Shown: positions 2,447 to 46,577 of the stretch, in pieces | Layout of the letters: every line of letters starts with the position of its first letter | Position numbering within the stretch: position 1 is the first letter of the stretch | Origin: a virus | DNA length: 46,577 bases | IMG/VR virus record: IMGVR_UViG_3300032144_000020 | Location: 1 to 46,577 of that record | Reading direction: 5' to 3' (one strand) | The notes under the pieces: generated by a model | Database searches by the model: none | The model's input: the letters and a program-made list of their open reading frames with translations, nothing else | Told to the model about the DNA's origin: nothing | Made by a program: the position numbers and the translations under genes

Positions 2447-3670
2447 CTATCTAGTAAGGCCAGCGCTGACCGGGGAGAGGCGGTCGGCGAGCGGGATGAG
2501 GGCCTCGTGGCGTGTGTCGAGGCCGATCATGGAGGCGAGGTCCTTGATCGCCGGGGTGTTGCAGCCACGGACGTTGAGGCGGCCTGATGGGATGTCCGTG
2601 AGCTGGAGCTGTAGGCGCTCCCCGTAGACGGCGCAGCCCTCGATGTTGAGCGTGCGCGCCACCTTCTGCCCGCTCCCGAGCGAACCGACGCGGATGACCT
2701 GGGAGAGGTTCTCGTTCCCGGGGCCGGCCGCGAAGCCGCAGCCACGGATCAGGACGTGGCCGTTAGCGAACCCGCGCCCGACCTTCCCGTCCGTCGCCGA
2801 GAAGAAGTCTCCCCCCGAGTCGTCGATCATGATGGCCCTGGTGCGCTGGCTCGCTGGGATCATGGGCGGGCCCTCTAGCTGTCCGCCGCCCTGGAAGAGG
2901 CACCCCTGGACGATGATGTCGGAGCCGCCCCCCTGCACCACGAGGCCGCCGCCGCCCCGCCATGACCAGGGCTGATACCAGTCTCCGAGGCGACAGGCTG
3001 TGAGCCAGATACGGGCCCCGGGCACCCAGGCGGTCTCGGAGGGGGAGTTCCTGACCTTGCAGGACTCAGCCCCAGACGCCGGCACGGCCACGCGGTTCCA
3101 GCGGAGGCCGTCCTTGGCGAACCCGTGCCAGTAGGAGGCGTGCTCGGCCGAGAAGCGGGCGGAGATCGTGACGTCCTCCAGCCAGACGTCCGACTGGTAG
3201 CCGAAGAGGGGCCAGACGGTCCCGTGCTGCTGGTTAGGTAGCGTCCCGTCCGTCGTCACCTCGACCTGCTTCATGTGCAGGGCGAACTTGGGCGCGATCG
3301 GCTGGTCCTTGTGCTCCAGGCCGAACCAGATGCCCTGGCGGGCCCCGCAGAGGAGGGTCAGGTTCTCGAAGCGTACGATCCCGTTATGGCGGTCCACGAG
3401 GACGGCCTGGTCGCCAACCGGGCGGATTCTGGTCGCCAAGCGCCCAGCCCCGATGAACCGCACGCCGTCGAAGCCCTTGTCCAGCCACTCGGCCGAGGTG
3501 TACTTCCGGCGGCCTGTGCCGGCCGAGTAGTCGATGTCGAAGCCCTGGACGTCCCCAGCGGGGAGCTGGATGTCCATGAGCCGCGGAGCCGTCTGCATGG
3601 GTTCCATGCCGGCCTTGGGCGCCAAGGAGGCCGGCTGCTTCGCCGGGAAGAGGGTGTCGATCAGGCCCAT
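2447..3670 (-). CDS. Right-handed parallel beta-helix (pectate-lyase fold) protein, candidate polysaccharide depolymerase
   Basis: It has repeated short rungs with Gly/Cys turns (IVQGCLFQGGG, LIRGCGFAAGPG, NIEGCAVYG, NVRGCNT), which is typical of beta-helix glycanases and tailspikes. ATG 3670 has AGGAG 8 nt upstream. The longer track start at 3772 would overlap the divergent NeuB-like gene. Confidence 0.6.
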   Translation of the reverse strand: MGLIDTLFPAKQPASLAPKAGMEPMQTAPRLMDIQLPAGDVQGFDIDYSAGTGRRKYTSAEWLDKGFDGVRFIGAGRLATRIRPVGDQAVLVDRHNGIVRFENLTLLCGARQGIWFGLEHKDQPIAPKFALHMKQVEVTTDGTLPNQQHGTVWPLFGYQSDVWLEDVTISARFSAEHASYWHGFAKDGLRWNRVAVPASGAESCKVRNSPSETAWVPGARIWLTACRLGDWYQPWSWRGGGGLVVQGGGSDIIVQGCLFQGGGQLEGPPMIPASQRTRAIMIDDSGGDFFSATDGKVGRGFANGHVLIRGCGFAAGPGNENLSQVIRVGSLGSGQKVARTLNIEGCAVYGERLQLQLTDIPSGRLNVRGCNTPAIKDLASMIGLDTRHEALIPLADRLSPVSAGLTR

Positions 3671-3733
3671 GCTGAGTCTCCTGGGGTTGGCCGGCAGGGA
3701 GGCGAACCGCATGGTAGGCTTGCCCTTGAGACA

Positions 3734-4624
3734 ATGGAGACACGATTCGTTGCGGAAGTGGGGTCGAACCACAACGGGGACATCCGCCGGGCGCTGGCGC
3801 TCATCCGGGAGGCGAAGGCCGCCGGGTTCGATGCGGTGAAGTTCCAGATGTTCGAGGTGCGGAGGCTATTCCACTCCTCGGCGCTCGACGCACGCCCGGA
3901 GCTTCTCGGGCGCGAGAAGATGGAGCTTCCTTCATGGTGGCTCCCGGAGCTGTCGGCCCAAGCCTTCGACGCCGGCATCCGCTTGGGGCTCTCGGCATTC
4001 GACGTCTCCGCCGTGGCCGTGGCGCACGACTTCATCGACTTCTGGAAGATCAGCTCCTACGACCTGATGCGCACCGACATCCCCCGCGCCATCTCGCGGC
4101 AAGCGAAGAAGCCGGTCGTCGCGTCGACGGGGATGTCCTCGATGTCGAACTGCTTGGAGGCCCGCTACCGGCTCCACGCGCTCGGCCTCGTGGACCTGAC
4201 CTTCCTCCACTGCCTCTCCGCCTACCCCGCCGAACCGGACGCCTGCAACCTCGCCGCGATAGACGCGATGCAGAAGGAGCTTGGACACCCAGTCGGGTGG
4301 TCCGACCACACGGCCTCTGTCGAGGTGATCGAGCGCGCCGTCTGGCGCTGGCGCTCCGCCATGGTGGAGATGCATGTCGACCTCGACGACGGCGAGGGGA
4401 TGGAGTCCGGGGCTCACTGCTGGTCAATGCGCCGCGCTGCCTTCGTGATCGAGCGCACGCGCGGGACTGTCCCCGACATGCTGGCGCGCTCAAGCCCGAT
4501 CGACGGCGACGGGAAGAAGCGCCCGCAGCTCTGTGAACAGGCGGAGGCCGAGTGGTGCGCTGACGACAGCGACGGCCTACGTCCACTCAGGATGACCCGA
4601 GAGAAACTACATGCCCACCCCTAG
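3734..4624 (+). CDS. NeuB/PseI/LegI-family nonulosonic (sialic-type) acid synthase
   Basis: The motif order matches NeuB: FVAEVGSNHNGDIRRALALIREAKAAGFDAVKFQ, WKISSYDL, KKPVVASTGMSS, FLHCLSAYPAEPDACNLAAI, VGWSDHT, VEMHV. There is no C-terminal SAF domain. The track ORF beginning at 3275 is an implausible antisense extension. Confidence 0.85.
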   Translation: METRFVAEVGSNHNGDIRRALALIREAKAAGFDAVKFQMFEVRRLFHSSALDARPELLGREKMELPSWWLPELSAQAFDAGIRLGLSAFDVSAVAVAHDFIDFWKISSYDLMRTDIPRAISRQAKKPVVASTGMSSMSNCLEARYRLHALGLVDLTFLHCLSAYPAEPDACNLAAIDAMQKELGHPVGWSDHTASVEVIERAVWRWRSAMVEMHVDLDDGEGMESGAHCWSMRRAAFVIERTRGTVPDMLARSSPIDGDGKKRPQLCEQAEAEWCADDSDGLRPLRMTREKLHAHP

Positions 4625-24130: not shown

Positions 24131-24396
24131 GGCTTGGCGTCGTACCCCTTCCGGAACCAGCGGTTGGCGAACTTCAGGAACTCGTGCGGGCCGTAGGCCT
24201 TGCCCATACGAGCGACCTGGGAGGCCTCCGCGATCATCTCGTCGCGGCACTTGGCTAGCGCAGCCTGGAGGCCAACGGGGGCCGTGCGCTGGCGCTGGTG
24301 CGGGGCCTGGGGGTGGGCGGTCGGACAATCGACGACGATAGGCTCTTCGGGCACTGGCTCTTCCTCTTCCTCAGGAAACAGGGGCTCGCTGCTCAT
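24127..24396 (-). CDS. Hypothetical acidic protein, 89 aa
   Basis: It begins at ATG 24396 (MSSEPLFPEEEEEPVPEEP...) and overlaps the dehydratase 3-prime end by 26 nt. No motif recognised. Confidence 0.45.
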   Translation of the reverse strand: MSSEPLFPEEEEEPVPEEPIVVDCPTAHPQAPHQRQRTAPVGLQAALAKCRDEMIAEASQVARMGKAYGPHEFLKFANRWFRKGYDAKP

Positions 24397-25276
24397 TACT
24401 CGTGTACCTCCACTGGCGGGCCGTAGAGCGCGGCCCGTGCGGTCGGATGATGAAGTAGCTCTCGCGCTCCTCGACCATCTGGCTCTCGTTTCCAGAGATG
24501 AGCGTCTCGTGGACCTTCTCCCCCACCGGCATCTCCTCCATCGCGGGCTCGGCGTCGGGGAGGATCGACTTGGCGAAGGCGTAGGCGGACGAGGCTGGGA
24601 GCTTCGGCACGAAGATCTCCCCGCCCTCCATGTCCGCGAGGCGCGCGAGCACGAAGGAGGCGGCGTCCTCGGCTGAGAGCCAGAAGCGCGTGCTCTCCAT
24701 GCTGCGGAGCGGGAAGGTCTTGGCACCCTTCTCCTTCAGCGTCCGCAGCGTCTCCAGGAAGCTGCCGCGCGAGCCCAGCACGTTCCCGTAACGGACGCAG
24801 GATAACTTCGTGCGCCCGATGTTGGCGTTGGAGGCGATGAACAGGCGCTCCATGCAGAGCTTGGTGGCCCCGTAGAGCGTCGTCGGCTCGACGGCCTTGT
24901 CTGTGGAGACGCCCATGACGCGCTCCACCCCCTCCTCGGCTGCGGCGAGGGCGACGTTCTGGGAGCCGAGGACGTTCGTCCTGACGTGCTCGAACGGGTT
25001 GGCCTCCCCGCTGGGGACGTGCTTGAGCGCTGCGGCCTGGACCACCGTATCGACGCCACGCATGGCGAGGCGCAGGCGGTCGTAGTCGCGCACGTCTCCG
25101 ATGAACCAGCGCAGGCGCTTGTCGTCGCCCAGCGCGCGCCGCATGTGGAACTGCTTGTGCTCGTCGCGGCTGAAGACGGCGAGGCGCTCAACCTCGCCGG
25201 TGGCGAGCGCGGCGGGGACGAAGGCGCTGCCGAACGTACCTGTCCCACCCAAAATCAGGACGTTACTCAAGTCCAC
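24371..25276 (-). CDS. pseB: UDP-GlcNAc 4,6-dehydratase, PseB/FlaA1 (CapD) family
   Basis: VLILGGTGTFGS, RWFIGDVRDYDRL, AAALKHVPSGEANPFEHVRTNVLGSQNV, STDKAVEPTTLYGATKLCMERLF, VRYGNVLGSRGS, TRFWLSAEDAASFV and GGEIFVPKLP are colinear with H. pylori FlaA1 as I remember it. The start is GTG 25276 or TTG 25270 (TTGA overlap). Confidence 0.85.
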   Translation of the reverse strand: MDLSNVLILGGTGTFGSAFVPAALATGEVERLAVFSRDEHKQFHMRRALGDDKRLRWFIGDVRDYDRLRLAMRGVDTVVQAAALKHVPSGEANPFEHVRTNVLGSQNVALAAAEEGVERVMGVSTDKAVEPTTLYGATKLCMERLFIASNANIGRTKLSCVRYGNVLGSRGSFLETLRTLKEKGAKTFPLRSMESTRFWLSAEDAASFVLARLADMEGGEIFVPKLPASSAYAFAKSILPDAEPAMEEMPVGEKVHETLISGNESQMVEERESYFIIRPHGPRSTARQWRYTSNEQRAPVS

Positions 25277-25887
25277 TCTTTCTCTGAGAGATTCGGGTAC
25301 TCCCCACGCTGCGGCTCGTTGTACTTCTTCGCCCACGAGAGGAGCCAGAGCCCACGTGCGGCGTCGGGCGGGGCAAGGTGCATATGCCAACCCCGCCCAA
25401 AGTTCTCCTGCTCGTCGAGCGATTTCCCGGGCTCGCGGCCATCGAAGCGCATCCTGCGCAGGCGGTCGGCCACCCAGGCGTCGTCGGTGAGGATCGCTCC
25501 CCCGCGCCCGATAGGGAGGGTCTTCGCTGCCTGGAACGAGAGGCAGACGAACTTCCCGGGCGTGTCGGCGTACATGTGCTCGTAGAACCACTTCGCCGAA
25601 TCGACGACGCCGATGGGTTCGATCTCGTAGCGGCCGAGCCACTCCTTGTCCGACCACTCGATGATGAGCCCCGCGTTGCGTGCCGCCTGGGCTACTCCGA
25701 CGTAGGTGTGCTTCGGTAGCGTCACGCGCCGGTCCCAGTCGTCGTCGAGCTTCGCCTCCTGAAAGCACAGGAACAGGGCGTTGGTGCAGGAGTCCACGGC
25801 GACGACGTGGGGGGCGCCCGTGTACGCCTCCAGGGCGCGCTCGAAGGCCTCCACGACTCGGTAGGGCTCTCGCGTGTCGAGCATCAT
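25267..25887 (-). CDS. DegT/DnrJ/EryC1 (PseC-like) aminotransferase-family protein, short form, 206 aa
   Basis: VEAFERALEAYTGAPHVVAVDSCTNALFL, TLPKHTYVGVAQAARNAGL and CLSFQAAKTLPIGRGGAILTDD (candidate PLP lysine) are present. It is about 150 aa shorter than canonical members. The ATG at 25887 overlaps the terL stop (ATGA). Confidence 0.65.
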   Translation of the reverse strand: MMLDTREPYRVVEAFERALEAYTGAPHVVAVDSCTNALFLCFQEAKLDDDWDRRVTLPKHTYVGVAQAARNAGLIIEWSDKEWLGRYEIEPIGVVDSAKWFYEHMYADTPGKFVCLSFQAAKTLPIGRGGAILTDDAWVADRLRRMRFDGREPGKSLDEQENFGRGWHMHLAPPDAARGLWLLSWAKKYNEPQRGEYPNLSEKEWT

Positions 25888-31105: not shown

Positions 31106-31417
31106 ATGTGCGGCTGTGTACGCCGCGCAGCCGTGGGCGAGCACTGGGGAGTGTCCCGCCCACGGCACACCATTCACCAGATGATCGACACCATGAAAGC
31201 CCAGCGGAAAGATCACGCCATGACACTCCGGATCGTCAAGGCAGCCCTGCGCCAGCCGCGAGACGTAGCGCAGATAGCGGCCGTCACAGGACTCAAGAAG
31301 CATCGCGTATACGACGCCATAGAGCGCATGCGGAAGGAAGGGCTCGTGGAGCCCGCCGAGTCGCTCGTGACCATGAGGACGTATCGGGCCTGGAGGCTCA
31401 AGGAGGCCGCGCTGTGA
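31106..31417 (+). CDS. Winged-helix (MarR-like) DNA-binding protein
   Basis: LRIVKAALRQPRDVAQIAAVTGLKKHRVYDAIERMRKEGLVE supports the call. The true start is probably ATG 31181 or ATG 31193. Confidence 0.55.
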   Translation: MCGCVRRAAVGEHWGVSRPRHTIHQMIDTMKAQRKDHAMTLRIVKAALRQPRDVAQIAAVTGLKKHRVYDAIERMRKEGLVEPAESLVTMRTYRAWRLKEAAL

Positions 31418-32883
31418 AGTACAAGAAGATCACGAAGCTCACGCCAGAGCAGACCGCCAAACTCGCCGTCTACCGGGACGAGTGGATCGATATTGCGCTC
31501 TCGACCGGGCGGATGACGGACGAGGAGCGCGAGCGCTGCATTGCGGCGGCGCGCGGCCTATACGCCGCGGCTAGCCTGCCGCAGCCCAAGGCCATCGTCG
31601 TCGTGCCTAGTCCGCTAGTGATGGCGCTGGCGGGCGGCGCGGCAGAGCAGTGGTGGCGCGACCGAGCTAGCGGAGCCGCCACGTACGCCGCCACGTACGC
31701 CGCCACGGACGCCGCCACGCGCGCCGCCACGCGCGCCGCCACGTACGCCGCCACGCGCGCCGCCACGGACGCCGCCACGTACGCCGCCACGTACGCCGCC
31801 ACGGACGCCGCCACGGACGCCGCCACGGCCGCCGCCACGGACGCCGCCACGCGCGCCGCCACGTACGCCGCCACGGACGCCGCCACGGACGCCGCCACGC
31901 GCGCCGCCACGTACGCCGCCACGGACGCCGCCACGTACGCCGCCACGGACGCCGCCACAGACGCCGCCACGCGCGCCGCCACGGAAGCCGCCACGCGCGC
32001 CGCCACGGAAGCCGCCACGCGCGCCGCCACGTACGCCGCCACGCGCGCCGCCACGCGCGCCGCCACGCGCGCCGCCACGGACGCCGCCACGTACGCCGCC
32101 ACGGACGCCGCCACGGACGCCGCCACGGACGCCGCCACGTACGCCGCCACGTACGCCGCCACGTACGCCGCCACGTACGCCGCCACGGACGCCGCCATGC
32201 GCGCCGCCTTTGCGCTCTCGCGCAACTGGGGCTCGTTCTACCAGGGCGGCAACATGTGGGCTGGCTGGTGCTCGTTTATCGTCTTCTGGCGTGACGAGAT
32301 GGGCCTTGGCCTGCGCCCAGAACTCCAGGACGCCTACGCGAAGTACGCGCACTGGGAAGCTCTGGCGCGCCTATCCGGATTCCGCTGGATGGGCGAGCAT
32401 GTCTGCATGATCTCTGAGAAGCCCGTACGCCTCATCACGTACACCAACGCGGCCGGCGCGCACGTCCCGCACTGCGACGACGGACCTTCACACCTCTGGG
32501 CGGATGGGTTTGCCGTCTACCACCTGCACGGCGTCCGCGTGCCGGAGTGGGTCGTGATGCAGCCGGAGAGGCTCACGGTCGAGGTCATCGACGCCGAAGA
32601 GAACGCCGAGGTCTCCAGAGTCATGCGCGAGAAGTACGGCGTCGGCAAATACCTCCGCGACACCGGAGCCAAGGTGATCGATGTAGACTACGAGGGCGCT
32701 CGCCGCGGCGCCGCCCCGAGGGCGCTCCTCCAGGATAAGCATGGCGAGCGCTGGCTCGTCGGTACTGACGGGAGCACCTCCCGCGTGTACCACATGCCAG
32801 TTCCGAAGACGGTCAATAACTGCCGCAAGGCCCACGCGTCCATCTGCGGCCTCGACGAATCCAGAATCATCTCCAAGAGCTAG
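31414..32883 (+). CDS. Repeat protein: N-terminal domain + (Ala-Ala-Thr-X)x43 + DUF6745-like C-terminal domain, 489 aa
   Basis: GTGA overlap start. The N-terminus [24 protein letters not shown]...[11 protein letters not shown] and the C-terminus WAGWCSF..., [23 protein letters not shown] and NAEVSRVM recall a bacterial family I remember as DUF6745. That family assignment is unverified. Confidence 0.7.
31675..32202 (+). repeat. In-frame 12-bp tandem array GCCGCCACGNNN x44
   Basis: There are 43 units GCC GCC ACG + (TAC x14, GAC x15, CGC x11, GAA x2, GCC x1), with one ACA synonymous change in unit 24. One degenerate unit (GCCGCCATGCGC) follows. The first nine bases of each unit are otherwise invariant. 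Confidence 0.95.
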
Positions 32884-32894
32884 GAAGTGACCAC

Positions 32895-33347
32895 ATGACG
32901 AAGACCAAAATCCATCCCGAGAGGACCGCCGAGCAGGTGTTTGCCGAGATCGAGGCCGCCGCATCCAAGGCGTGCCCCGAGCTGCGCGACAACTCCGACA
33001 TCAAGATCGGCGAGGTTATCCACCAGGGAGACGTTTACCTCCATGCCGTCGCTGACACCCACCCGCGCGGAGAACTCCTCGGCACGCGCCAGGTCGCGGT
33101 TGGGAACACCGTGGGCGCGCGGCACATCGTGGAGGGGAATGTGAAGGTCTACGCTGGCGTCAAGTACCCGAACTGGGTGAAGGACCCCGAAGGCTCGCAG
33201 CCGAACGCCATCCTCGGCCCGGTCGTCGTCGTCGAGAGCGAGGCCGTCCTGACCCACCCTGATCACGCGCACCACACGCTCCGCGTGGGCCTCTACCAGG
33301 TGACCTACCAGTACAACCCGCGCACGATGCGCACCGTGCAGGACTGA
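32895..33347 (+). CDS. Conserved phage hypothetical (small beta-barrel, QGDV...H motif family), 150 aa
   Basis: AGGAAG SD. IHQGDVYLHAV...VGARHIVEG...LTHPDHAHHTLRVGLYQVTYQ resembles a recurrent phage family of unknown function (from memory). Confidence 0.5.
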   Translation: MTKTKIHPERTAEQVFAEIEAAASKACPELRDNSDIKIGEVIHQGDVYLHAVADTHPRGELLGTRQVAVGNTVGARHIVEGNVKVYAGVKYPNWVKDPEGSQPNAILGPVVVVESEAVLTHPDHAHHTLRVGLYQVTYQYNPRTMRTVQD

Positions 33348-33429: not shown

Positions 33430-34200
33430 GTGGCGGCGGCTCACGATAGGCTGGCGCTCGTGACCGATACGCTCGACGTCTACGAGGTCTGGCCGGACTA
33501 CTTCGAGGTCCAGCGCAGGGGCCTCTGGTACTACGAGAGGCTCTGGGCGGTCCTCCTGCGGGAGCTAGAGCGCCGGACGACCGGCAGGCGCCTGACAGAG
33601 TTCGGTAGCGGGCCTGGCTTCTTGCTGAAGCTCGCCGAGAGACGGATCTGGGATGCCCGTGGGATAGAGCCATCGCTTGTCGCCAGGGCTCACGCCGAGG
33701 CCATGGGGTGCCTATGCTTGGACAAACCGCCATACCTCTGGACAGACGACGCCATCATCTCCACCGAGGTCCTGGAGCACGTCATAGACCCCCTCGCCAC
33801 CCTGAAGGAGTGGAGCGAGGTCCTCTTCGACGGAGGCCTCTTGGCCCTCTCCGTCCCGAACGACAACAACCCACTCCAGCGCCTCTTCGGCCGCCTCCTG
33901 GCCCCGCGCGGAAACGAGCGAGGCGGGCTCCTCCAGTGCGGCGACAGGTCGCGCCCGTGGGTCCACCCGACCCACCTCCACTACTTCAACCCGAAGTCGC
34001 TGAAAGCCCTCGTCGAGTCGGCGGGGTTCGAGGTCGTGTGGCAGAGGACGAGCTTCCCAGTGGAGCTTCTCATGGTCCTCCCGATCCCGAGGCGCTGGGC
34101 GTGGAAGCTCTCGCGCCTGTGGCCCGCCCCTCCGTTCCTGTGGCGTTTCCATGTGGGCCGCCACTGTCTCCTAGTCGCCAGGAAGATAGACCAGATATGA
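33430..34200 (+). CDS. Class I SAM-dependent methyltransferase
   Basis: LTEFGSGPGFLLKLA (motif I), AIISTEVLEHVIDP and GGLLALSVPN support the call. The start is GTG 33430 or GTG 33460. Confidence 0.75.
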   Translation: MAAAHDRLALVTDTLDVYEVWPDYFEVQRRGLWYYERLWAVLLRELERRTTGRRLTEFGSGPGFLLKLAERRIWDARGIEPSLVARAHAEAMGCLCLDKPPYLWTDDAIISTEVLEHVIDPLATLKEWSEVLFDGGLLALSVPNDNNPLQRLFGRLLAPRGNERGGLLQCGDRSRPWVHPTHLHYFNPKSLKALVESAGFEVVWQRTSFPVELLMVLPIPRRWAWKLSRLWPAPPFLWRFHVGRHCLLVARKIDQI

Positions 34201-34913
34201 AGATCAAGGACCTCGCCGTCGAGCGCCTGAAGCTGGAGGAACTCCTGGAGATCCCCCCTGCGCCGGGGCACGAGCGATACCTGCACCTGCTCTGCGGGTC
34301 TGGCGAAGTCGAGGTTGGCGACCTCTTCCACGGCCCTTGGTGGAGGAAGTCCGTCTTCGAGCGCCCCGAGCCTGGGATCTACGTCCCCTCCGGAGAGGCC
34401 ATCAAGTTCGCGCCCAACGGGTCGATGGACGTCCTAGTCGTCAGTTCCCCTGCGGGGCAATGGCCCGACCCGACCCTGGTCGTCACCCACAAGGTCCACG
34501 AGATCGGGTGGGGGCACCACAAGCGGACTGTCTACGAGATCCTCGGCGGTGAAGGGCCGGCGCTGAGGATCCGACTCGGGGAGACACACAACGTCCCGGG
34601 GGGCTGGTCCTCCTGGCCGCCGCACAGATTCGACGCCGACCTCTCCATGGCCTCGGAGTTCGAGGAGGCGTTCCTGCCGTTCATGCGCCCGAAGGACGGG
34701 TTTGCGCTCATGCGCCGCAAGGGTCGATGGCAGGACGGGTCCGAAGTCGATGACGCCGTGGCGCTAACGACTGGCGTCATGGTTCCTGTCCCGCTCGGGA
34801 GCCACCCTATCGTCGCCGGCCCGGAGACGTCGCTCGTGTACGTGTGGGCGTACCTCTCGCCGGAGCCCAAGGTCTACGCGAAGTGGGCCGAGGATGCGGG
34901 GTGCTACAAGTGA
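34197..34913 (+). CDS. KduI/IolB-family cupin (5-deoxy-glucuronate isomerase-like)
   Basis: KSVFERPEPGIYVP, GGWSSWPPHRFD, EEAFLPFMRPKDGFALMRR and VPVPLGSHPIVAGPETSLVYVWAYL are colinear with B. subtilis IolB motifs (SVFERKP, GNWSSYPPHKHD, GYHPV...YYLNVMAG) as I remember them. ATGA overlap start. Confidence 0.7.
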   Translation: MKIKDLAVERLKLEELLEIPPAPGHERYLHLLCGSGEVEVGDLFHGPWWRKSVFERPEPGIYVPSGEAIKFAPNGSMDVLVVSSPAGQWPDPTLVVTHKVHEIGWGHHKRTVYEILGGEGPALRIRLGETHNVPGGWSSWPPHRFDADLSMASEFEEAFLPFMRPKDGFALMRRKGRWQDGSEVDDAVALTTGVMVPVPLGSHPIVAGPETSLVYVWAYLSPEPKVYAKWAEDAGCYK

Positions 34914-35563
34914 CCATCCTCGTCACGGGCCACGAGGGGGACATCGGCGGCCTAGTAGCTGCGCACTTGGCGCGCGGAGATCAGGCAGTGATGGGAGTCA
35001 GGACGGACGCGAAGCTCGACAGCGCGCACCGCTACGCGGGCCTCGTCGTCTGCCACGGGGCTCCTGGCTGCATCAAGCCGTCCGTGGACCTCACGGATGT
35101 GGAGTTCCAGAAGATCATCGACGTCGATCTCGTCGGGACGTTCAAGATCTGCCGTGAGGCTGGCCGTGCCATGATCGCCCACGGCAACGGCGGGGCCATC
35201 GTGATCGTCTCGTCCATCCACGCCATCGCCGCCTACCCACAGCGCGCGGCGTACGCAGCGGCCAAGGCGGGCGTCGTTGGCCTAATGCGAGCCCTGGCTG
35301 TCGAGTGGGCGCGCCACGGGGTGCGCGTGAACGCAGTGCTACCAGGCCAGGTCATGGCGACTCGCCGCACCGCGAAGCTGACGGACGCCGGCGAATACAA
35401 GGCAATGCAGGATAGGTCGCCCAGCGGCCTGCTCGCCTCGCGGCTGGGAGTCCTCAGGGCGATCGAGTACCTCCTGAGCGCGCCAGACGTCACAGGGCAC
35501 GCCCTCGTCGTCGATGGGGGCTGGACAGCAAGTGGGTGGTACAAGAGCCATGAGGACGCGTAG
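34910..35563 (+). CDS. Short-chain dehydrogenase/reductase (SDR)
   Basis: ILVTGHEGDIGG, IVIVSSIH, YAAAKAG (YxxxK) and VNAVLPG support the call. GTGA overlap start. Confidence 0.8.
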   Translation: MTILVTGHEGDIGGLVAAHLARGDQAVMGVRTDAKLDSAHRYAGLVVCHGAPGCIKPSVDLTDVEFQKIIDVDLVGTFKICREAGRAMIAHGNGGAIVIVSSIHAIAAYPQRAAYAAAKAGVVGLMRALAVEWARHGVRVNAVLPGQVMATRRTAKLTDAGEYKAMQDRSPSGLLASRLGVLRAIEYLLSAPDVTGHALVVDGGWTASGWYKSHEDA

Positions 35564-36815
35564 CGAGATCCTGAGAGACCTTCGAGCGGCCCGTCAGCGG
35601 AACATCGCCGTGTACGCACGGATGGCTGAGGAGGTACCGAAGGCAGAGCTTCTTGGGTGGAGGGCTAGGAAGCCGGAAGACCCCGACGTGACCATGCTGA
35701 TCGTGGAGAAGTGCCTGGATCACTCCCCGGCCTTGGCCAGCCGCGCCATCGCAGAGGTCAACGAGAACGACGAGGAGATCACACGCCTAAGCCGCGAGCT
35801 GGAGCGTGCCACAAGGCATTACGTCTCCCCTCCAGAGCCCCAGACGACGAAGAGCGCGGTCCTCCTTCCTGGAGGAGGGATCCTGCACGCCTACGCCGCC
35901 AGGGAGGCGCTGGCGCTTGGCCTAGTCCCTGTCGTCACCGACAAGGACAAGGACTGCCCGTGCGCCAAGATCCAGGGAGTCGAGTTCCACGAGATCGACT
36001 GCTACGACACGGAGTCCCACGTCGCGCTCGCCGCGAAGCTCAAGGGCCGGCTCATCGGGGCCTTCTGTGGCGGGGCGGACACACATGTCCAGGTGGCGGC
36101 CGTCCACGAGGCAATGGGCTGGGAGGGGCGCTGGGTCTCCAGGAAGACGGCGACCATATGCAAGGACAAGGAGCAGGCGAAGGACGCGCTGCTCGCCGCA
36201 GCGGTTCCTACGGCGGCCTACAGGATGGAGCCGCCATGCATCTGCAAGCCACGCGTTGGCTCCGGATCGCGCGGCGTGAAGCGCCTTCTCATCAGAAGCG
36301 AGGCCAATAGGGCCTGCGGCAACTACCCGGATGCCCTACACGAAGAACTCCTGGAAGGCCCCGAGCAGTCGGTGGAGATCCTGCTGAGGCCCGGAGCTGG
36401 GCCCCTCTACCGCGTCAACATCGTGGACAGGCACTTCGTCTGGGTGGACGACCAGCCCCTAGAGGTTGGGCACACCAACCCGACGAGGCTCGACGCGAAG
36501 ACTCAGGGCGAGATCTACGCCCTCTGCTACGCCGCCGCAGAGGCCGTGGGCGCCACGGTCGGCTTCTTCAAGTGCGACACCATCCTGACCAAGGACGGGC
36601 CCAAGGTCCTGGAGTGCTCCCCTAGGCTCTCAGGAGGCTTTGACTCCCAGATCTCTACCCCGGCGTCGTCGGGAAGGAACTTGCTCAGGTACGGCCTCCA
36701 GCTCGCCTGCGGCCTACCCACGGAGGCGAAGCTCCTAGACCGCCGCTGGGACGAGCGCGTGACCGTCATCCACCGCCCTCACCTCGCGACACCCGACCTC
36801 TTCCGTGGCAGATAA
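35550..36815 (+). CDS. ATP-grasp enzyme with about 100-aa helical N-terminal extension
   Basis: CICKPRVGSGSRGV, EELLEGPEQSVEIL and FFKCDTILTKDGPKVLECSPRLSGG support the call. It starts at ATG 35550 and overlaps the SDR end by 14 nt. Confidence 0.7.
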   Translation: MRTRSEILRDLRAARQRNIAVYARMAEEVPKAELLGWRARKPEDPDVTMLIVEKCLDHSPALASRAIAEVNENDEEITRLSRELERATRHYVSPPEPQTTKSAVLLPGGGILHAYAAREALALGLVPVVTDKDKDCPCAKIQGVEFHEIDCYDTESHVALAAKLKGRLIGAFCGGADTHVQVAAVHEAMGWEGRWVSRKTATICKDKEQAKDALLAAAVPTAAYRMEPPCICKPRVGSGSRGVKRLLIRSEANRACGNYPDALHEELLEGPEQSVEILLRPGAGPLYRVNIVDRHFVWVDDQPLEVGHTNPTRLDAKTQGEIYALCYAAAEAVGATVGFFKCDTILTKDGPKVLECSPRLSGGFDSQISTPASSGRNLLRYGLQLACGLPTEAKLLDRRWDERVTVIHRPHLATPDLFRGR

Positions 36816-40450: not shown

Positions 40451-41205
40451 TCGCCGACAAGCTCGACGAGTGGTACGCCCAGAAGGGCGCGAGGGACCAG
40501 GAGGCCCGCGCCTTCAAGTTCGGACCCTCGAACCTCGGCGACTGCCAGCGGAAGCTCGCGCACCTCCTCAGCGGCGTTGAGCCCGCCCCGCTCTCGCCCG
40601 AGACCGTGCGGACGTTCGAGCTGGGCCACCAGCGTGGGGAGGCCCTGGAGGAGGCGTGCAAGGCGATCTGGCCCGACGCACGAACGCAGGTCGCCGTGCG
40701 CATACCGTGCGGCAAGTTCACCATCGAGGGCACCTGCGACCTCTGGATCCCGAGCCTCCGGACCGTGGTGGACTTCAAGACCCAAGCCGTCTTCGGGTTC
40801 GGGTTGCTCGACGAGGAGGGAGTCAGCCTCGACTACAAGCTCCAGGTCCACGCCTACCGCATGGGCATGGTGTCTGCCGAAGGCTGGCCTCCTAGCGCAG
40901 TCCGCTGCGTCCTCGTCTACGAGGCGAAGGACTCCGACGCCAGGAAGGGCATCAAGGGCCAGCAGTTGAAGGAGCTGGAGGTGCCGTACACCGACGAACT
41001 CCAGGCCGAGTACGAGGAGCGCATGATGGCGCTGGAGAGGATGCTGCTCCTGAATGAGATGGGGCAGCTCGACCCCAAGGCGTGGCCGGAGCTGCCGCTC
41101 GACTCCAAGGGGAAGAAGTCGTGGAAGTGCCGCATGGACGAGAAGACTGGGCGATCCCTTTACTGTCCGGTAGGGCAGATCAGAGGAGGCTGCTATGGGC
41201 GGTGA
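40447..41205 (+). CDS. Cas4-like PD-(D/E)XK exonuclease with Cys cluster, 252 aa
   Basis: FGPSNLGDCQRKLAHLL, ELGHQRGEALEE, CDLW...VVDFKTQ and QVHAYRM are present, plus three C-terminal Cys residues (WKC...YCPVGQIRGGC). GTGA overlap start. Confidence 0.7.
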   Translation: MIADKLDEWYAQKGARDQEARAFKFGPSNLGDCQRKLAHLLSGVEPAPLSPETVRTFELGHQRGEALEEACKAIWPDARTQVAVRIPCGKFTIEGTCDLWIPSLRTVVDFKTQAVFGFGLLDEEGVSLDYKLQVHAYRMGMVSAEGWPPSAVRCVLVYEAKDSDARKGIKGQQLKELEVPYTDELQAEYEERMMALERMLLLNEMGQLDPKAWPELPLDSKGKKSWKCRMDEKTGRSLYCPVGQIRGGCYGR

Positions 41206-41737
41206 CTGGAGGCCCATTCCTGGCTGGCCGTACTCGGCCTCTTCCCTTGGGAGAATCGCCCGAAGGCTGCATGCCGGCAGGGGCAGGCACGGTCCGCCAG
41301 CGCCGCTAAGCGAGTACATCAGCAAGAACGGATACGCATACGTGGTCTTGGTTGGAGAAGGAGGGCGGAGGCGGATGCGCTCCACCGTGCACTCGCTCAT
41401 CTGCGAGGCATTCCACGGCCAAAGGCCAAGAGGCATGGAGGTGCGCCACCTGAACGGAAACAGGCGCGACAACAGATCGGAGAACCTCTCGTGGGGTACG
41501 CGCTCCGAGAACGCGGCCGACAGGCTGCGCCACGGAACTGACTGGAACGGAGACAAGCACAAGAGCCGCGTTCTGAGCGGGGCCGTCGTCATTGATCTGC
41601 GAACGCGCAGAAAGCGCGGCGACACATACGCAAAGATCTCCAAGGACACAGGGATAGGCTACTCAACCGCCTACAAGGCCATTCGCGGCGCGTCCTGGCG
41701 ATCCGTGGGAGAAGAACGAGGAGGCTGCTACAGGTGA
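41195..41737 (+). CDS. HNH homing endonuclease (NUMOD4-like N-terminus, HNH_3 core, C-terminal HTH)
   Basis: WRPIPGWPYSASSLGRI, NGYAYVVL, VHSLICEAFHG, VRHLNGNRRDNRSENLSWGTRSEN and GDTYAKISKDTGIGYSTAYKAIRG support the call. AGGAGG lies 6 nt upstream. Confidence 0.85.
   Translation: MGGDWRPIPGWPYSASSLGRIARRLHAGRGRHGPPAPLSEYISKNGYAYVVLVGEGGRRRMRSTVHSLICEAFHGQRPRGMEVRHLNGNRRDNRSENLSWGTRSENAADRLRHGTDWNGDKHKSRVLSGAVVIDLRTRRKRGDTYAKISKDTGIGYSTAYKAIRGASWRSVGEERGGCYR
41196..41730 (+). mobile_element. Free-standing HNH endonuclease insertion bounded by 13-bp direct repeat
   Basis: GAGGAGGCTGCTA occurs at 41183..41195 and 41718..41730, and GGTGA follows each copy a few bases later. The insert duplicates the end of the nuclease gene together with the SD of the next gene. 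Confidence 0.6.
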
Positions 41738-46063: not shown

Positions 46064-46577
46064 CTAGGGCAGGCGGGCTTCCAGCCACGCAGTCATCTGC
46101 GCGACCTTCGCGGCCTTCGTCGGGTCGGCGATCAGGTTGATCGTCTCGCCTGGATCCAGGAGGAGGTCGTACATCTCATCCCCGGCGGCCGTGCGGCGGA
46201 GCTTGTACCGGACGCCCCGGGCGCACACGTCGAGCGGCCACAGTGAGTCCGCGAGCTGCCCGCATAGCACGAAGTCGTGGGCCGCGAGCGCCCCGGCCAT
46301 GAGCGGATGGAGGTCCACCCCGTCGCCGATGTCGTGGCCGGCGAGCGTCGAGGGTATGTCTACGACGTGAACCAAGGCAGGGCTGGAGCCGTGCGGGATG
46401 CCGACACCGGCCATCACGAGGGGAACGTGGGTGCCGCCATCCAGGCTCGTTCCCTTTGCGCCGCCCACTTCGACAGGGGCACCGTTGTCTCCGAGGAGGA
46501 CGACCGTCGTCGTCTGGAGGTCGATGGCGGCCATGATCGTCCCGAGCTGGGCGTCAGCCGCGACGAGCATCGCCTCG
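46064..46577 (-). CDS. Same sulfatase gene, C-terminal part (stop at 46064..46066)
   Basis: The 168-aa track ORF is in frame with 1..807. It carries VVLLGDNGAP, GGTHVPLVMAGVG, VVDIPSTLAG and MYDLLLDPGETINL, which are typical sulfatase C-terminal motifs. The joined gene is 1194 nt / 397 aa. Confidence 0.9.
   Translation of the reverse strand, partial: EAMLVAADAQLGTIMAAIDLQTTTVVLLGDNGAPVEVGGAKGTSLDGGTHVPLVMAGVGIPHGSSPALVHVVDIPSTLAGHDIGDGVDLHPLMAGALAAHDFVLCGQLADSLWPLDVCARGVRYKLRRTAAGDEMYDLLLDPGETINLIADPTKAAKVAQMTAWLEARLP
46451..46577. repeat. Terminal overlap, copy 2 (identical to 1..127)
   Basis: Same 127-nt string as 1..127. The unique genome length is therefore 46450 bp. Confidence 0.95.

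Follow-up and report, generated by a model that had tools for sequence, protein, structure and literature searches.

Here we describe an in-frame array of 12-nucleotide (nt) units within a phage gene of the DUF6745 family. The window, by which we mean the whole stretch of 46,577 nt that was analyzed, comprises positions 1 to 46,577 of the virus record IMGVR_UViG_3300032144_000020, and the gene codes for a protein of 489 amino acids (aa) in which a four-residue peptide is repeated 43 times. The array is a real in-frame hypervariable minisatellite, which occupies a fixed, permissive site between the N-terminal and the C-terminal half of the protein, and its units are turned over much faster than point substitutions accumulate in the flanks. 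We propose that this turnover drives a cassette array which serves as the projecting, variable interaction surface of a module consisting of the DUF6745 protein and a small partner protein, a proposal that we hold to be slightly likelier right than wrong.

The array and the DUF6745 family

The gene and its parts are located in the window as follows:
31414..32883, plus strand: DUF6745-family gene containing the array; GTG start, TAG stop, 489 aa; Pfam PF20530
31414..31671, plus strand: conserved N-terminal domain (aa 1-86) with the conserved residues W24, Y50, P58, S66-P67 and G75
31672..32211, plus strand: array of 12-nt cassettes; in the family register x-p2-A-T it reads G, 42 units (x = Y/D/R/E/A) and the decayed units DAAM and RAAF
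32212..32880, plus strand: C-terminal DUF6745 domain, defined by alignment and Pfam; motifs including YHLHGVRVP

Bases 31675..32190 consist of 43 units of GCCGCCACG+NNN (GCC GCC ACG NNN), which lie in frame within the open reading frame (ORF) 31414..32883. The variable fourth codon is TAC in 14 units, GAC in 15, CGC in 11, GAA in two and GCC in one, and the first nine bases of all 43 units carry a single change, the synonymous exchange of ACG for ACA in unit 24 (31951). Unit 44 starts at 32191 and is decayed (GCCGCCATGCGC, that is GCC GCC ATG CGC or AAMR); it is followed by a further remnant, GCCGCCTTTGCG (GCC GCC TTT GCG, AAFA). The original prediction, made from the letters of this DNA alone, had listed the same number of units, the same codon counts, the ACA in unit 24 and the decayed unit, and a recount reproduced this description exactly; the span it gave, 31675..32202, falls within the array 31672..32211. 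The copy number of 43 is that of the assembly, and its exact value could be verified with reads only.

Using Tandem Repeats Finder, one array was detected in the whole 46.6-kb window (31671..32208, period 12, 44.9 copies, score 768). The two-unit pattern occurs 43 times in the array, compared with 0.55 occurrences expected from shuffles, and no second copy of the array pattern is present anywhere in the window. Within the array, Ala is encoded by GCC in 86 of 86 cases and Thr by ACG in 42 of 43, whereas the non-repeat parts of the same gene use a mixture of codons for Ala (GCC 17, GCG 17, GCT 5, GCA 1) and for Thr (ACG 6, ACC 5, ACT 1). The uniformity of the silent sites is therefore far beyond chance and not a consequence of codon bias. 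The order of the Tyr, Asp and Arg units could not be distinguished from random (13 identical neighbours versus 11.7 +/- 2.8 in shuffles); the longest repeated block comprises 4 units, and no higher-order block structure was found in the array of the window. The composition of its variable position (Tyr 14; Arg 11, or 12 with the decayed unit; Asp plus Glu 17) is typical of the family.

Assignment to this family had been suggested in the original prediction, together with the proposal of a profile search with both terminal domains. Pfam DUF6745 (PF20530) matched the full protein with 76 bits (E = 3e-21, cut-off 27) over aa 314-482, and the C-terminal 226 aa alone with 81 bits (E = 8e-23), which identified the C-domain as DUF6745; the N-domain proved to be conserved in the family. 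Every invariant alignment column of the C-domain motifs GGNxW, R..H..FC..S..P and PHxxxGP..W.DG...Y..HG is present in the window protein, which also shows the N-domain residues and, with its 43 cassettes, the four-residue repeats of the array-bearing subfamily. The N-terminal domain gave no match in Pfam or PDB. For the window protein NCBIfam yielded no match, Pfam nothing besides DUF6745, and PHROGs only families of unknown function; the PADLOC defence models matched neither this protein nor the partner nor four homologues.

A search of 5.8 billion proteins revealed at least 740 homologues among the 8,000 candidates scored, and the best 120 all carry PF20530. With a profile of the C-domain, 11,780 of 1.84 billion cluster representatives (50% identity) were found at E<=1e-3 and 9,128 at E<=1e-10. 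Almost all of the sources are uncultured phages and prophages, and the domain occurs in 11 of 50,697 GenBank phage records. From IMG/VR, 203 relatives were found and 80 loci examined; 58 loci came in addition from bacterial contigs of one genome per species (together L001-L138). The bacterial loci represent many phyla, mostly Alphaproteobacteria, and many of them lie on contigs of 35-48 kb or in chromosomes, consistent with prophages.

Almost every close homologue has the same layout of an N-domain of about 90 aa, a four-residue array and a C-domain of about 240 aa, and the four-residue periodic segments that had been expected at this place in homologues were seen in the alignments. In about half of the DUF6745 clusters, (x-[A/D]-A-T)n arrays of 10-171 units are inserted at this one place, and about half of the more distant representatives have variant arrays or plain linkers. 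The arrays range from a few units up to 171 (L025). The closest relatives, which are 54-56% identical to the window protein (P0007, P0009 and P0013), lack an array, and their two domains are connected by about 15 aa; the array is thus an optional insertion at one fixed site. In 4,130 units of the family-wide pattern x-[A/D]-A-T, which were delimited by their Ala and Thr, position 2 is occupied by Ala in 61% and by Asp in 23%, and position x is Arg in 23%, Asp in 21% and Tyr in 15%, followed by Ser, Glu, Ala, Asn, His, Phe, Trp and Leu. Other cassettes are x-S-A-T/V, x-D-A-V, x-Q-A-T and x-N-A-A/V/M, and an uncultured siphovirus carries (x-S-S-L)29.

Members of the family such as those of the Microcystis phage Ma-LMM01 and of the Mycobacterium abscessus prophage prophiGD102-1 (gp38) share the homologous C-domain and are 25-55% identical to the window protein. 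The gp38 protein (L140, 3059-4851, genes 38-39) has the same order of N-domain, array and C-domain with 46 cassettes, which read x-[G/D]-Q-L rather than the x-A-A-T of the window. Their codons (GGG/CGG/TGG, GAC/GGC, CAG in all 46 and CTC in all 46) display the same pattern at the DNA level as the window array. A gene for a RepA-like initiator is located near this array, and gene 39 (114 aa), immediately downstream of gp38, is unlike the usual partner. As a prophage of a cultured clinical isolate, prophiGD102-1 could provide a tractable experimental system.

Turnover of the units and selection at the variable residue

According to the original prediction, variation is focused on one codon and is not what neutral decay would leave. 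For 80 distinct arrays, each with 15 or more units, we determined the minor-allele fraction at every one of the 12 positions of the unit. The means for the three bases were 0.52, 0.40 and 0.06 in the variable codon and 0.055, 0.27 and 0.05 in the second codon, and those for the third bases of the Ala and Thr codons were 0.03 and 0.05, respectively. The same codon positions vary in 80 independent arrays. The pattern is therefore not one of neutral decay, as had been claimed, but reflects both a recent turnover of units and selection acting on the variable residue.

In the flanking domains the commonest Ala or Thr codon accounts for only 40-47% of the cases. The dominant Ala codon is GCC in 38 arrays, GCG in 33, GCA in 5 and GCT in 4, and the dominant Thr codon is ACC in 45, ACG in 24, ACA in 5 and ACT in 6; the third base of the variable codon is fixed within an array, as C in 56, G in 13 and T in 11. 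This uniformity within and difference between arrays indicates concerted evolution, in which the units of one array have a recent common ancestor and the arrays of different lineages have diverged. The peptide pattern x-[A/D]-A-T is kept with differing codons in genomes of 30-70% GC, so that the protein in this frame is under selection. In three phages of low GC content (L004, L022 and L056; genome GC 0.37-0.43) the variable codons are TAC, GAC and CGC, and the cassettes are far richer in GC than the genome.

Close relatives allowed a comparison of arrays within nearly unchanged flanks. Three wastewater phages from independent assemblies (L141, L142 and L143) are 100% identical over 255 nt of the N-domain and 765 nt of the C-domain and 98.6-99.8% identical over the upstream 1.3 kb, whereas their arrays comprise 166, 170 and 177 residues. 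The arrays differ in that a whole unit is replaced (CGT GCC GCC ACC to AAC GCC GCC ACC) and single or several units are inserted. Different arrays were also found in four other groups of proteins with identical or near-identical C-domains, and three Xanthobacter prophages with flanks of 80-94% identity contain 32, 31 and 23 units in a different order. The expectation that the copy number varies between related genomes was thereby borne out, and both number and order differ even between 100% identical flanks. For the most part, these data establish duplications, deletions and conversions of units, not point mutations, as the changes that occur in the arrays. For the window phage no close relative was found (the best homologue is about 55% identical, and 24 kb of the window gave no DNA match among GenBank phages), and the comparisons of copy number given here concern other arrays of the family.

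Selection at the hypervariable residue can be deduced from a natural experiment, because the arrays fall into three codon classes. In 68 NNC arrays (1,877 units) the most frequent codons are GAC (492), CGC (430), TAC (421), AGC (144), CTC (76), GCC (75), CAC (64) and GTC (60), with CCC and TCC both at 0. The 11 NNT arrays contain GAT (100), CGT (99) and TAT (65), and the 18 NNG arrays, in which Tyr and Asp are not encodable, contain TGG (130), AGG plus CGG (145), GAG (107) and GGG (68). Each of the codon classes is made up of about one third aromatic residues, one third Arg and one third Asp or Glu, and the recurrence of this mix in three classes demonstrates selection at the protein level. 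Pro was not found at the variable position in NNC and NNG arrays and only once in NNT arrays (one codon in 2,700 units). An analysis of the coupling of the variable residue with its neighbours revealed weak effects only.

The confinement of the variation to particular bases would also be expected if targeted hypermutation, by a diversity-generating retroelement (DGR) or an unknown enzyme, wrote the variable codon. The variation is limited to the first two bases of one codon (NNC, compare the AAC of DGRs) and the middle base of the next one, and DGR variable regions likewise vary at particular, NNC-like codon positions of a phage protein. Against such a mechanism, the window contains no template copy of the array, and a reverse transcriptase family was found neither in the scanned ORFs of the window nor in the list of the top 25 families for 148 neighbouring genes. 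Furthermore, the A of the Thr codon never varies, NNG and NNT arrays exist, and near-identical phages differ by whole units, since the change from CGT to AAC involves three base changes and single units are inserted. A DGR was rejected as the source of the variation because no template repeat was found in the window, no reverse transcriptase among the scanned ORFs and listed families, and whole units are changed; events of this kind, which are recombination events of whole units, distinguish the array from DGR variable regions. Targeted hypermutation in general we regard as scarcely credible.

Predicted structure and function of the array

A structure prediction of the repeat had been suggested together with the original description. 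AlphaFold modelled the C-domain alone with a predicted local distance difference test score (pLDDT) of 83.8 and the full protein with a pLDDT of 78. The N- and C-domains, mostly above 90 (N-domain 85-96), form one globule in this model, and the array appears as a pair of long helices (aa 90-168 and 176-258) with a turn between them. Adjacent units tend to have opposite charge (z = 0.46 +/- 0.09), as expected for i/i+4 salt bridges. A helical arm is consistent with the Ala richness, with the near-absence of Pro at the variable position and with this modest excess of opposite charges. Foldseek searches against PDB gave no match for the C-domain (best E 0.33) or the full protein (best E 0.78), the matches of a structure search in BFVD were other DUF6745 proteins only, and profile searches of PDB with the C-domain, the N-domain and the partner yielded nothing credible.

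Each cassette of 12 nt codes for four residues. Two of the positions are structural, one with Ala and the other with a residue that is beta-branched or hydrophobic (Thr in the window); a third is semi-variable (here Ala; Ala or Asp in most relatives), and one is hypervariable. As the data largely show, slippage or recombination between near-identical cassettes duplicates, deletes and converts whole units. This turnover keeps the silent sites uniform and shifts the number and order of the units faster than point mutation alters the flanks, while selection holds the hypervariable residue at a mixture in which aromatic residues, Arg and Asp or Glu each make up about a third. In the function that we propose, the array would probably form a long Ala-rich alpha-helical arm or hairpin which projects from the globular core of N- and C-domain and displays the side chains of Tyr, Arg and Asp as an irregular ladder. 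Such a ladder could provide an interaction surface of variable length and sequence that tunes the reach, valency or specificity of the DUF6745-plus-partner module, and the module may act early in infection against a variable target of the host or of a competitor, in phage-host or phage-phage conflict.

Several observations weigh against this proposal. The searches of PDB, with Foldseek and with PADLOC revealed no structural relative, target or activity for either protein. The two helices of the array were modelled with a pLDDT of just 45-68, and a test for charge complementarity between opposite arms of the hairpin was null. Sister arrays rich in Ser and Gly (x-S-S-L, x-G-Q-L) are poor helix formers, so that helicity may not be the conserved property, and by helix geometry a strict period of 4.0 residues does not fit a sustained coiled-coil interface. 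The random order with constant composition would suit a role as a bulk property, such as valency or charge balance, as well as specific recognition, and we lean towards composition and length rather than order as the features that matter. The model also does not explain why Ser is always encoded by AGC (144 units in 20 NNC arrays) and never by TCC; codons with C as the second base are rare at the hypervariable position in general. This asymmetry is synonymous and cannot stem from protein selection, which hints at a mutational or nucleotide-level bias. Moreover, the comparisons that reveal turnover rest mostly on short-read assemblies, and the differences could partly be assembly errors.

The Ser codons lead to the question whether the repeat works at the DNA level, as a set of iterons, an origin embedded in a gene or a recombination hotspot, with the peptide as a by-product. 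The origin ori-lambda lies in the linker-coding part of gene O. A role of this kind would agree with the nucleotide-level constraint that the asymmetry of AGC and TCC suggests, with the constancy of 9 of the 12 bases, silent sites included, and with the replication and recombination genes found around the gene in other phages (ERF, RecT, Sak, SSB, PD-(D/E)XK, AAA_24, RepA-like). However, the peptide pattern persists with different codons across a GC range of 30-70%, and the residue classes at the variable position converge across the codon classes. In addition, known iteron sets do not resemble 40-170 copies of a 12-bp unit, the array is absent altogether from close relatives, and unit turnover already accounts for the uniform silent sites. 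Taken together, a function of the repeat as DNA is highly improbable.

The reliability of the assemblies has to be considered as well. Breaks inside the array occur in 43 of 80 IMG/VR contigs and in about 18 of 58 genome contigs (L001, L004, L007, L009 and L010, for example, start inside), and gene fragments with the N-domain only are common in the protein database; a search for the N-domain in other architectures gave mostly such truncated fragments at contig ends. Length and order of the arrays could therefore be an artefact of short-read assembly. Against this stand the array itself, which is in frame and bounded by both conserved domains, and the same architecture in isolate genomes (the M. 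abscessus prophage, Hansschlegelia, Xanthobacter and Phyllobacterium) and in contigs and chromosomes with names or titles that suggest long reads or complete assembly, from which we conclude that the arrays are real. Moreover, a 127-mer spans about 10 units with about 3^10 possible orders, and the assembly path is therefore resolvable. Of all the explanations considered, an artefact is the least probable. In two loci (L082 at about 9.0-10.6 kb and L051 at about 9.7-10.6 kb) the array is partly out of frame (RRHARRHV..., RRNERRNA...), which may be due to an indel error of the assembly (the name of L082 suggests long reads) or to a real frameshift. The systematic breaks of short-read phage assemblies at these arrays affect estimates of the completeness of viral genomes.

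A simpler function than the proposed interaction surface would be that of a passive spacer, ruler or linker, in which the variable residue is merely a solvent-exposed, tolerated position. Array lengths from 0 to 171 units at the same site and the apparently random order of the units are in line with this idea, and a precedent exists in type I HsdS, whose helical dimerisation regions contain four-residue repeats of 12 bp that vary in copy number (PMC8836594). But the variable residue is not a neutral sample of codons, as it is divided into thirds in three codon classes, with Asn, His, Thr and Gly rare. Furthermore, the N- and C-domains were modelled as one globule and are joined directly in relatives without the array, so nothing is spaced apart. 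A passive spacer is therefore unlikely. An analogy with the repeats of TAL effectors would suggest a more specific role, that of a programmable recognition device in which each cassette, by means of its one or two variable residues, would read one unit of a periodic ligand and phages would retarget the protein by shuffling. A nucleic-acid strand, a polysaccharide or a filamentous host protein could be such a ligand, and the ligand once bound would be the target on which the DUF6745 core and its metal-binding-like partner act. We consider this device, its candidate ligands and this division of labour as rather unlikely, somewhat more so than a mere spacer.

Genomic setting and comparison with known systems

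The genes on both sides of the DUF6745 gene are:
31106..31417, plus strand: upstream winged-helix gene (MarR_2/TrmB-like, Pfam), overlapping the DUF6745 start by 4 nt (GTGA)
32895..33347, plus strand: His-rich partner gene (150 aa), 12 nt downstream; motifs QGD, G(E)xTGHxH, HxEH, QRE and C-terminal ..V(A/Q)D

The window was identified as phage DNA by an SU10-type portal, an adaptor and a large terminase on the minus strand, and the repeat gene is located in a plus-strand non-structural block. To detect partners, all ORFs within 4 kb of the DUF6745 gene were clustered in 139 loci. The dominant neighbour is a protein of about 120 aa encoded on the same strand, which is adjacent in 92-99 of the 139 loci (about 70%) with a median gap of 7 nt, directly downstream in 70 and upstream in 22. 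No match to this partner was found in Pfam, PDB or PADLOC, and it matches PHROG 27831, a family of unknown function. In the wastewater phages the upstream gene of 104 aa belongs to the partner family (hhalign probability 98.5%). We take the His-rich motifs to resemble those of a small metal-binding beta protein, possibly cupin-like.

Other neighbours, from an analysis of 148 neighbouring genes, are AAA_24, PD-(D/E)XK, DUF2800, Gp157, ERF, RecT, Sak, single-stranded DNA-binding protein, DNA methylases, integrase and HNH. These genes of replication and recombination indicate that the module belongs to the early, DNA-metabolism region; in many uncultured phages and prophages, DUF6745 proteins are an accessory component of this region. 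Pentapeptide-repeat proteins are encoded within 3 kb of the DUF6745 gene in two of the 138 loci. The upstream winged-helix gene had no tblastn match in the 80 viral loci and is not conserved beside DUF6745; its product shows a weak likeness to the PADLOC Csa3/CARF-associated HTH models (E = 4e-7). A gene similar to HNH/NUMOD4 homing endonucleases (41195-41737, plus strand) is also located in the non-structural block of the window.

Downstream of the repeat gene, the 150-aa ORF is followed by genes for a methyltransferase, a KduI/IolB-like protein, an SDR and an ATP-grasp protein. They are part of a set of the nonulosonic-acid type, distributed over 3275-4624 (plus), 24371-25768 (minus), 33430-36815 (plus) and 46064-46570 (minus), which also includes NeuB-like and PseB-like (Polysacc_synt_2) genes, and a sulfatase fragment at the edge of the window was listed with it. 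The ORFs 2447-3772 (minus) and 3275-4624 (plus), both with a coding-like GC content at third codon positions, overlap on opposite strands; the latter contains the NeuB domain, and the 441-aa minus-strand ORF is therefore probably in part spurious or mis-started.

Sugar genes of this kind had given rise to the idea that the regularly spaced Thr residues are dedicated acceptors of an O-glycan (nonulosonic acid), forming a polymer like antifreeze glycoproteins or mucin. Sugar genes as assumed for this idea are indeed present, among them a NeuB-like and a PseB-like gene, whereas no Maf domain was found in any window ORF scanned. The 43 Thr residues in an Ala-rich context resemble the tandem repeats of fish antifreeze glycoproteins, which are rich in Ala-Ala-Thr, and the window provides NeuB-like, PseB-like, ATP-grasp, SDR, KduI-like and methyltransferase genes, of which four follow immediately downstream of the DUF6745 gene and its partner. 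In contrast to the fish proteins, which have a period of three residues, are secreted and are glycosylated at every Thr, the array has a period of four with added Tyr, Arg or Asp and no export signal. No signal peptide was detected at the N-terminus of the window protein. Its sole hydrophobic stretch (aa 60-78, in the N-domain; maximal Kyte-Doolittle value 1.66) is borderline for a membrane segment and is broken by Pro-Ser-Pro; in the AlphaFold model it forms a strand and a helix, both buried. A cytoplasmic location of the protein is probable. Thr is also not conserved in the family, and sister arrays replace it by Val, Ile, Leu or Met, not by Ser, which indicates that the conserved property is a beta-branched or hydrophobic residue and not the hydroxyl group. 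In addition, the 138 other loci have none of these sugar genes beside the DUF6745 gene, a search of the 80 viral loci over 10 kb found none of them either, and no glycosyltransferase family is listed among the top 25 for the 148 neighbouring genes. At the level of the family these results speak against a glycan acceptor, which we judge to be very unlikely, although glycosylation may still occur in this one phage with its genes of the nonulosonic-acid type.

If the proposed interaction surface proves true, thousands of environmental phage lineages carry a two-gene module with a built-in cassette array, and an array that changes in length and sequence within an otherwise identical gene would bear the mark of an arms race at the molecular level or of a multivalent surface that can be tuned. 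With its near-absence from cultured phages, the family represents a clear gap in what is known about early interactions of phage and host. In this case, the four-residue unit and its one selectable position would also make up the smallest modular repeat scaffold known, of possible interest for protein engineering.

We found no paper that mentions DUF6745, and in the literature on tetrapeptide or 12-bp repeats in phages nothing relevant except for one precedent, HsdS. The HsdS proteins of EcoR124I/II contain four-residue TAEL repeats. The array resembles type I HsdS (EcoR124I/II, Mycoplasma pneumoniae) in its in-frame 12-bp unit, its predicted alpha-helical context and its variable copy number. 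In the HsdS repeats this number changes by slippage between strains and even between passages (PMC8836594). Unlike the array, HsdS has 2 to about 10 copies, lacks a hypervariable residue and uses the repeat as a ruler between two DNA-binding domains; the two share no sequence homology, and Pfam and NCBIfam revealed no HsdS (Methylase_S) homology in the window protein. Pentapeptide repeats, A(D/N)LXX, are similar in their very short unit, which combines variable positions with a small residue, Asp/Asn or Ala, and a hydrophobic residue at the centre. They differ by a five-residue unit and a quadrilateral beta-helix, whereas the array has four-residue units without a Pfam match and with predicted helices. 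TAL effectors and the WD40, ANK and TPR repeats of fungal NLR proteins, in which internal conservation is high, are encoded by near-identical DNA repeats with variation in one or two codons, which are reshuffled by recombination and draw on a small residue alphabet. The array shares the near-identical units, the one or two variable codons, the small residue alphabet and the reshuffling with these proteins, but their units comprise 33-42 residues instead of four, and their folds are solved and their ligands known. By analogy, the HsdS repeats and the repeats of TAL effectors and fungal NLR proteins appear to be the closest parallels in mechanism, from which the array differs in unit size, number and homology.

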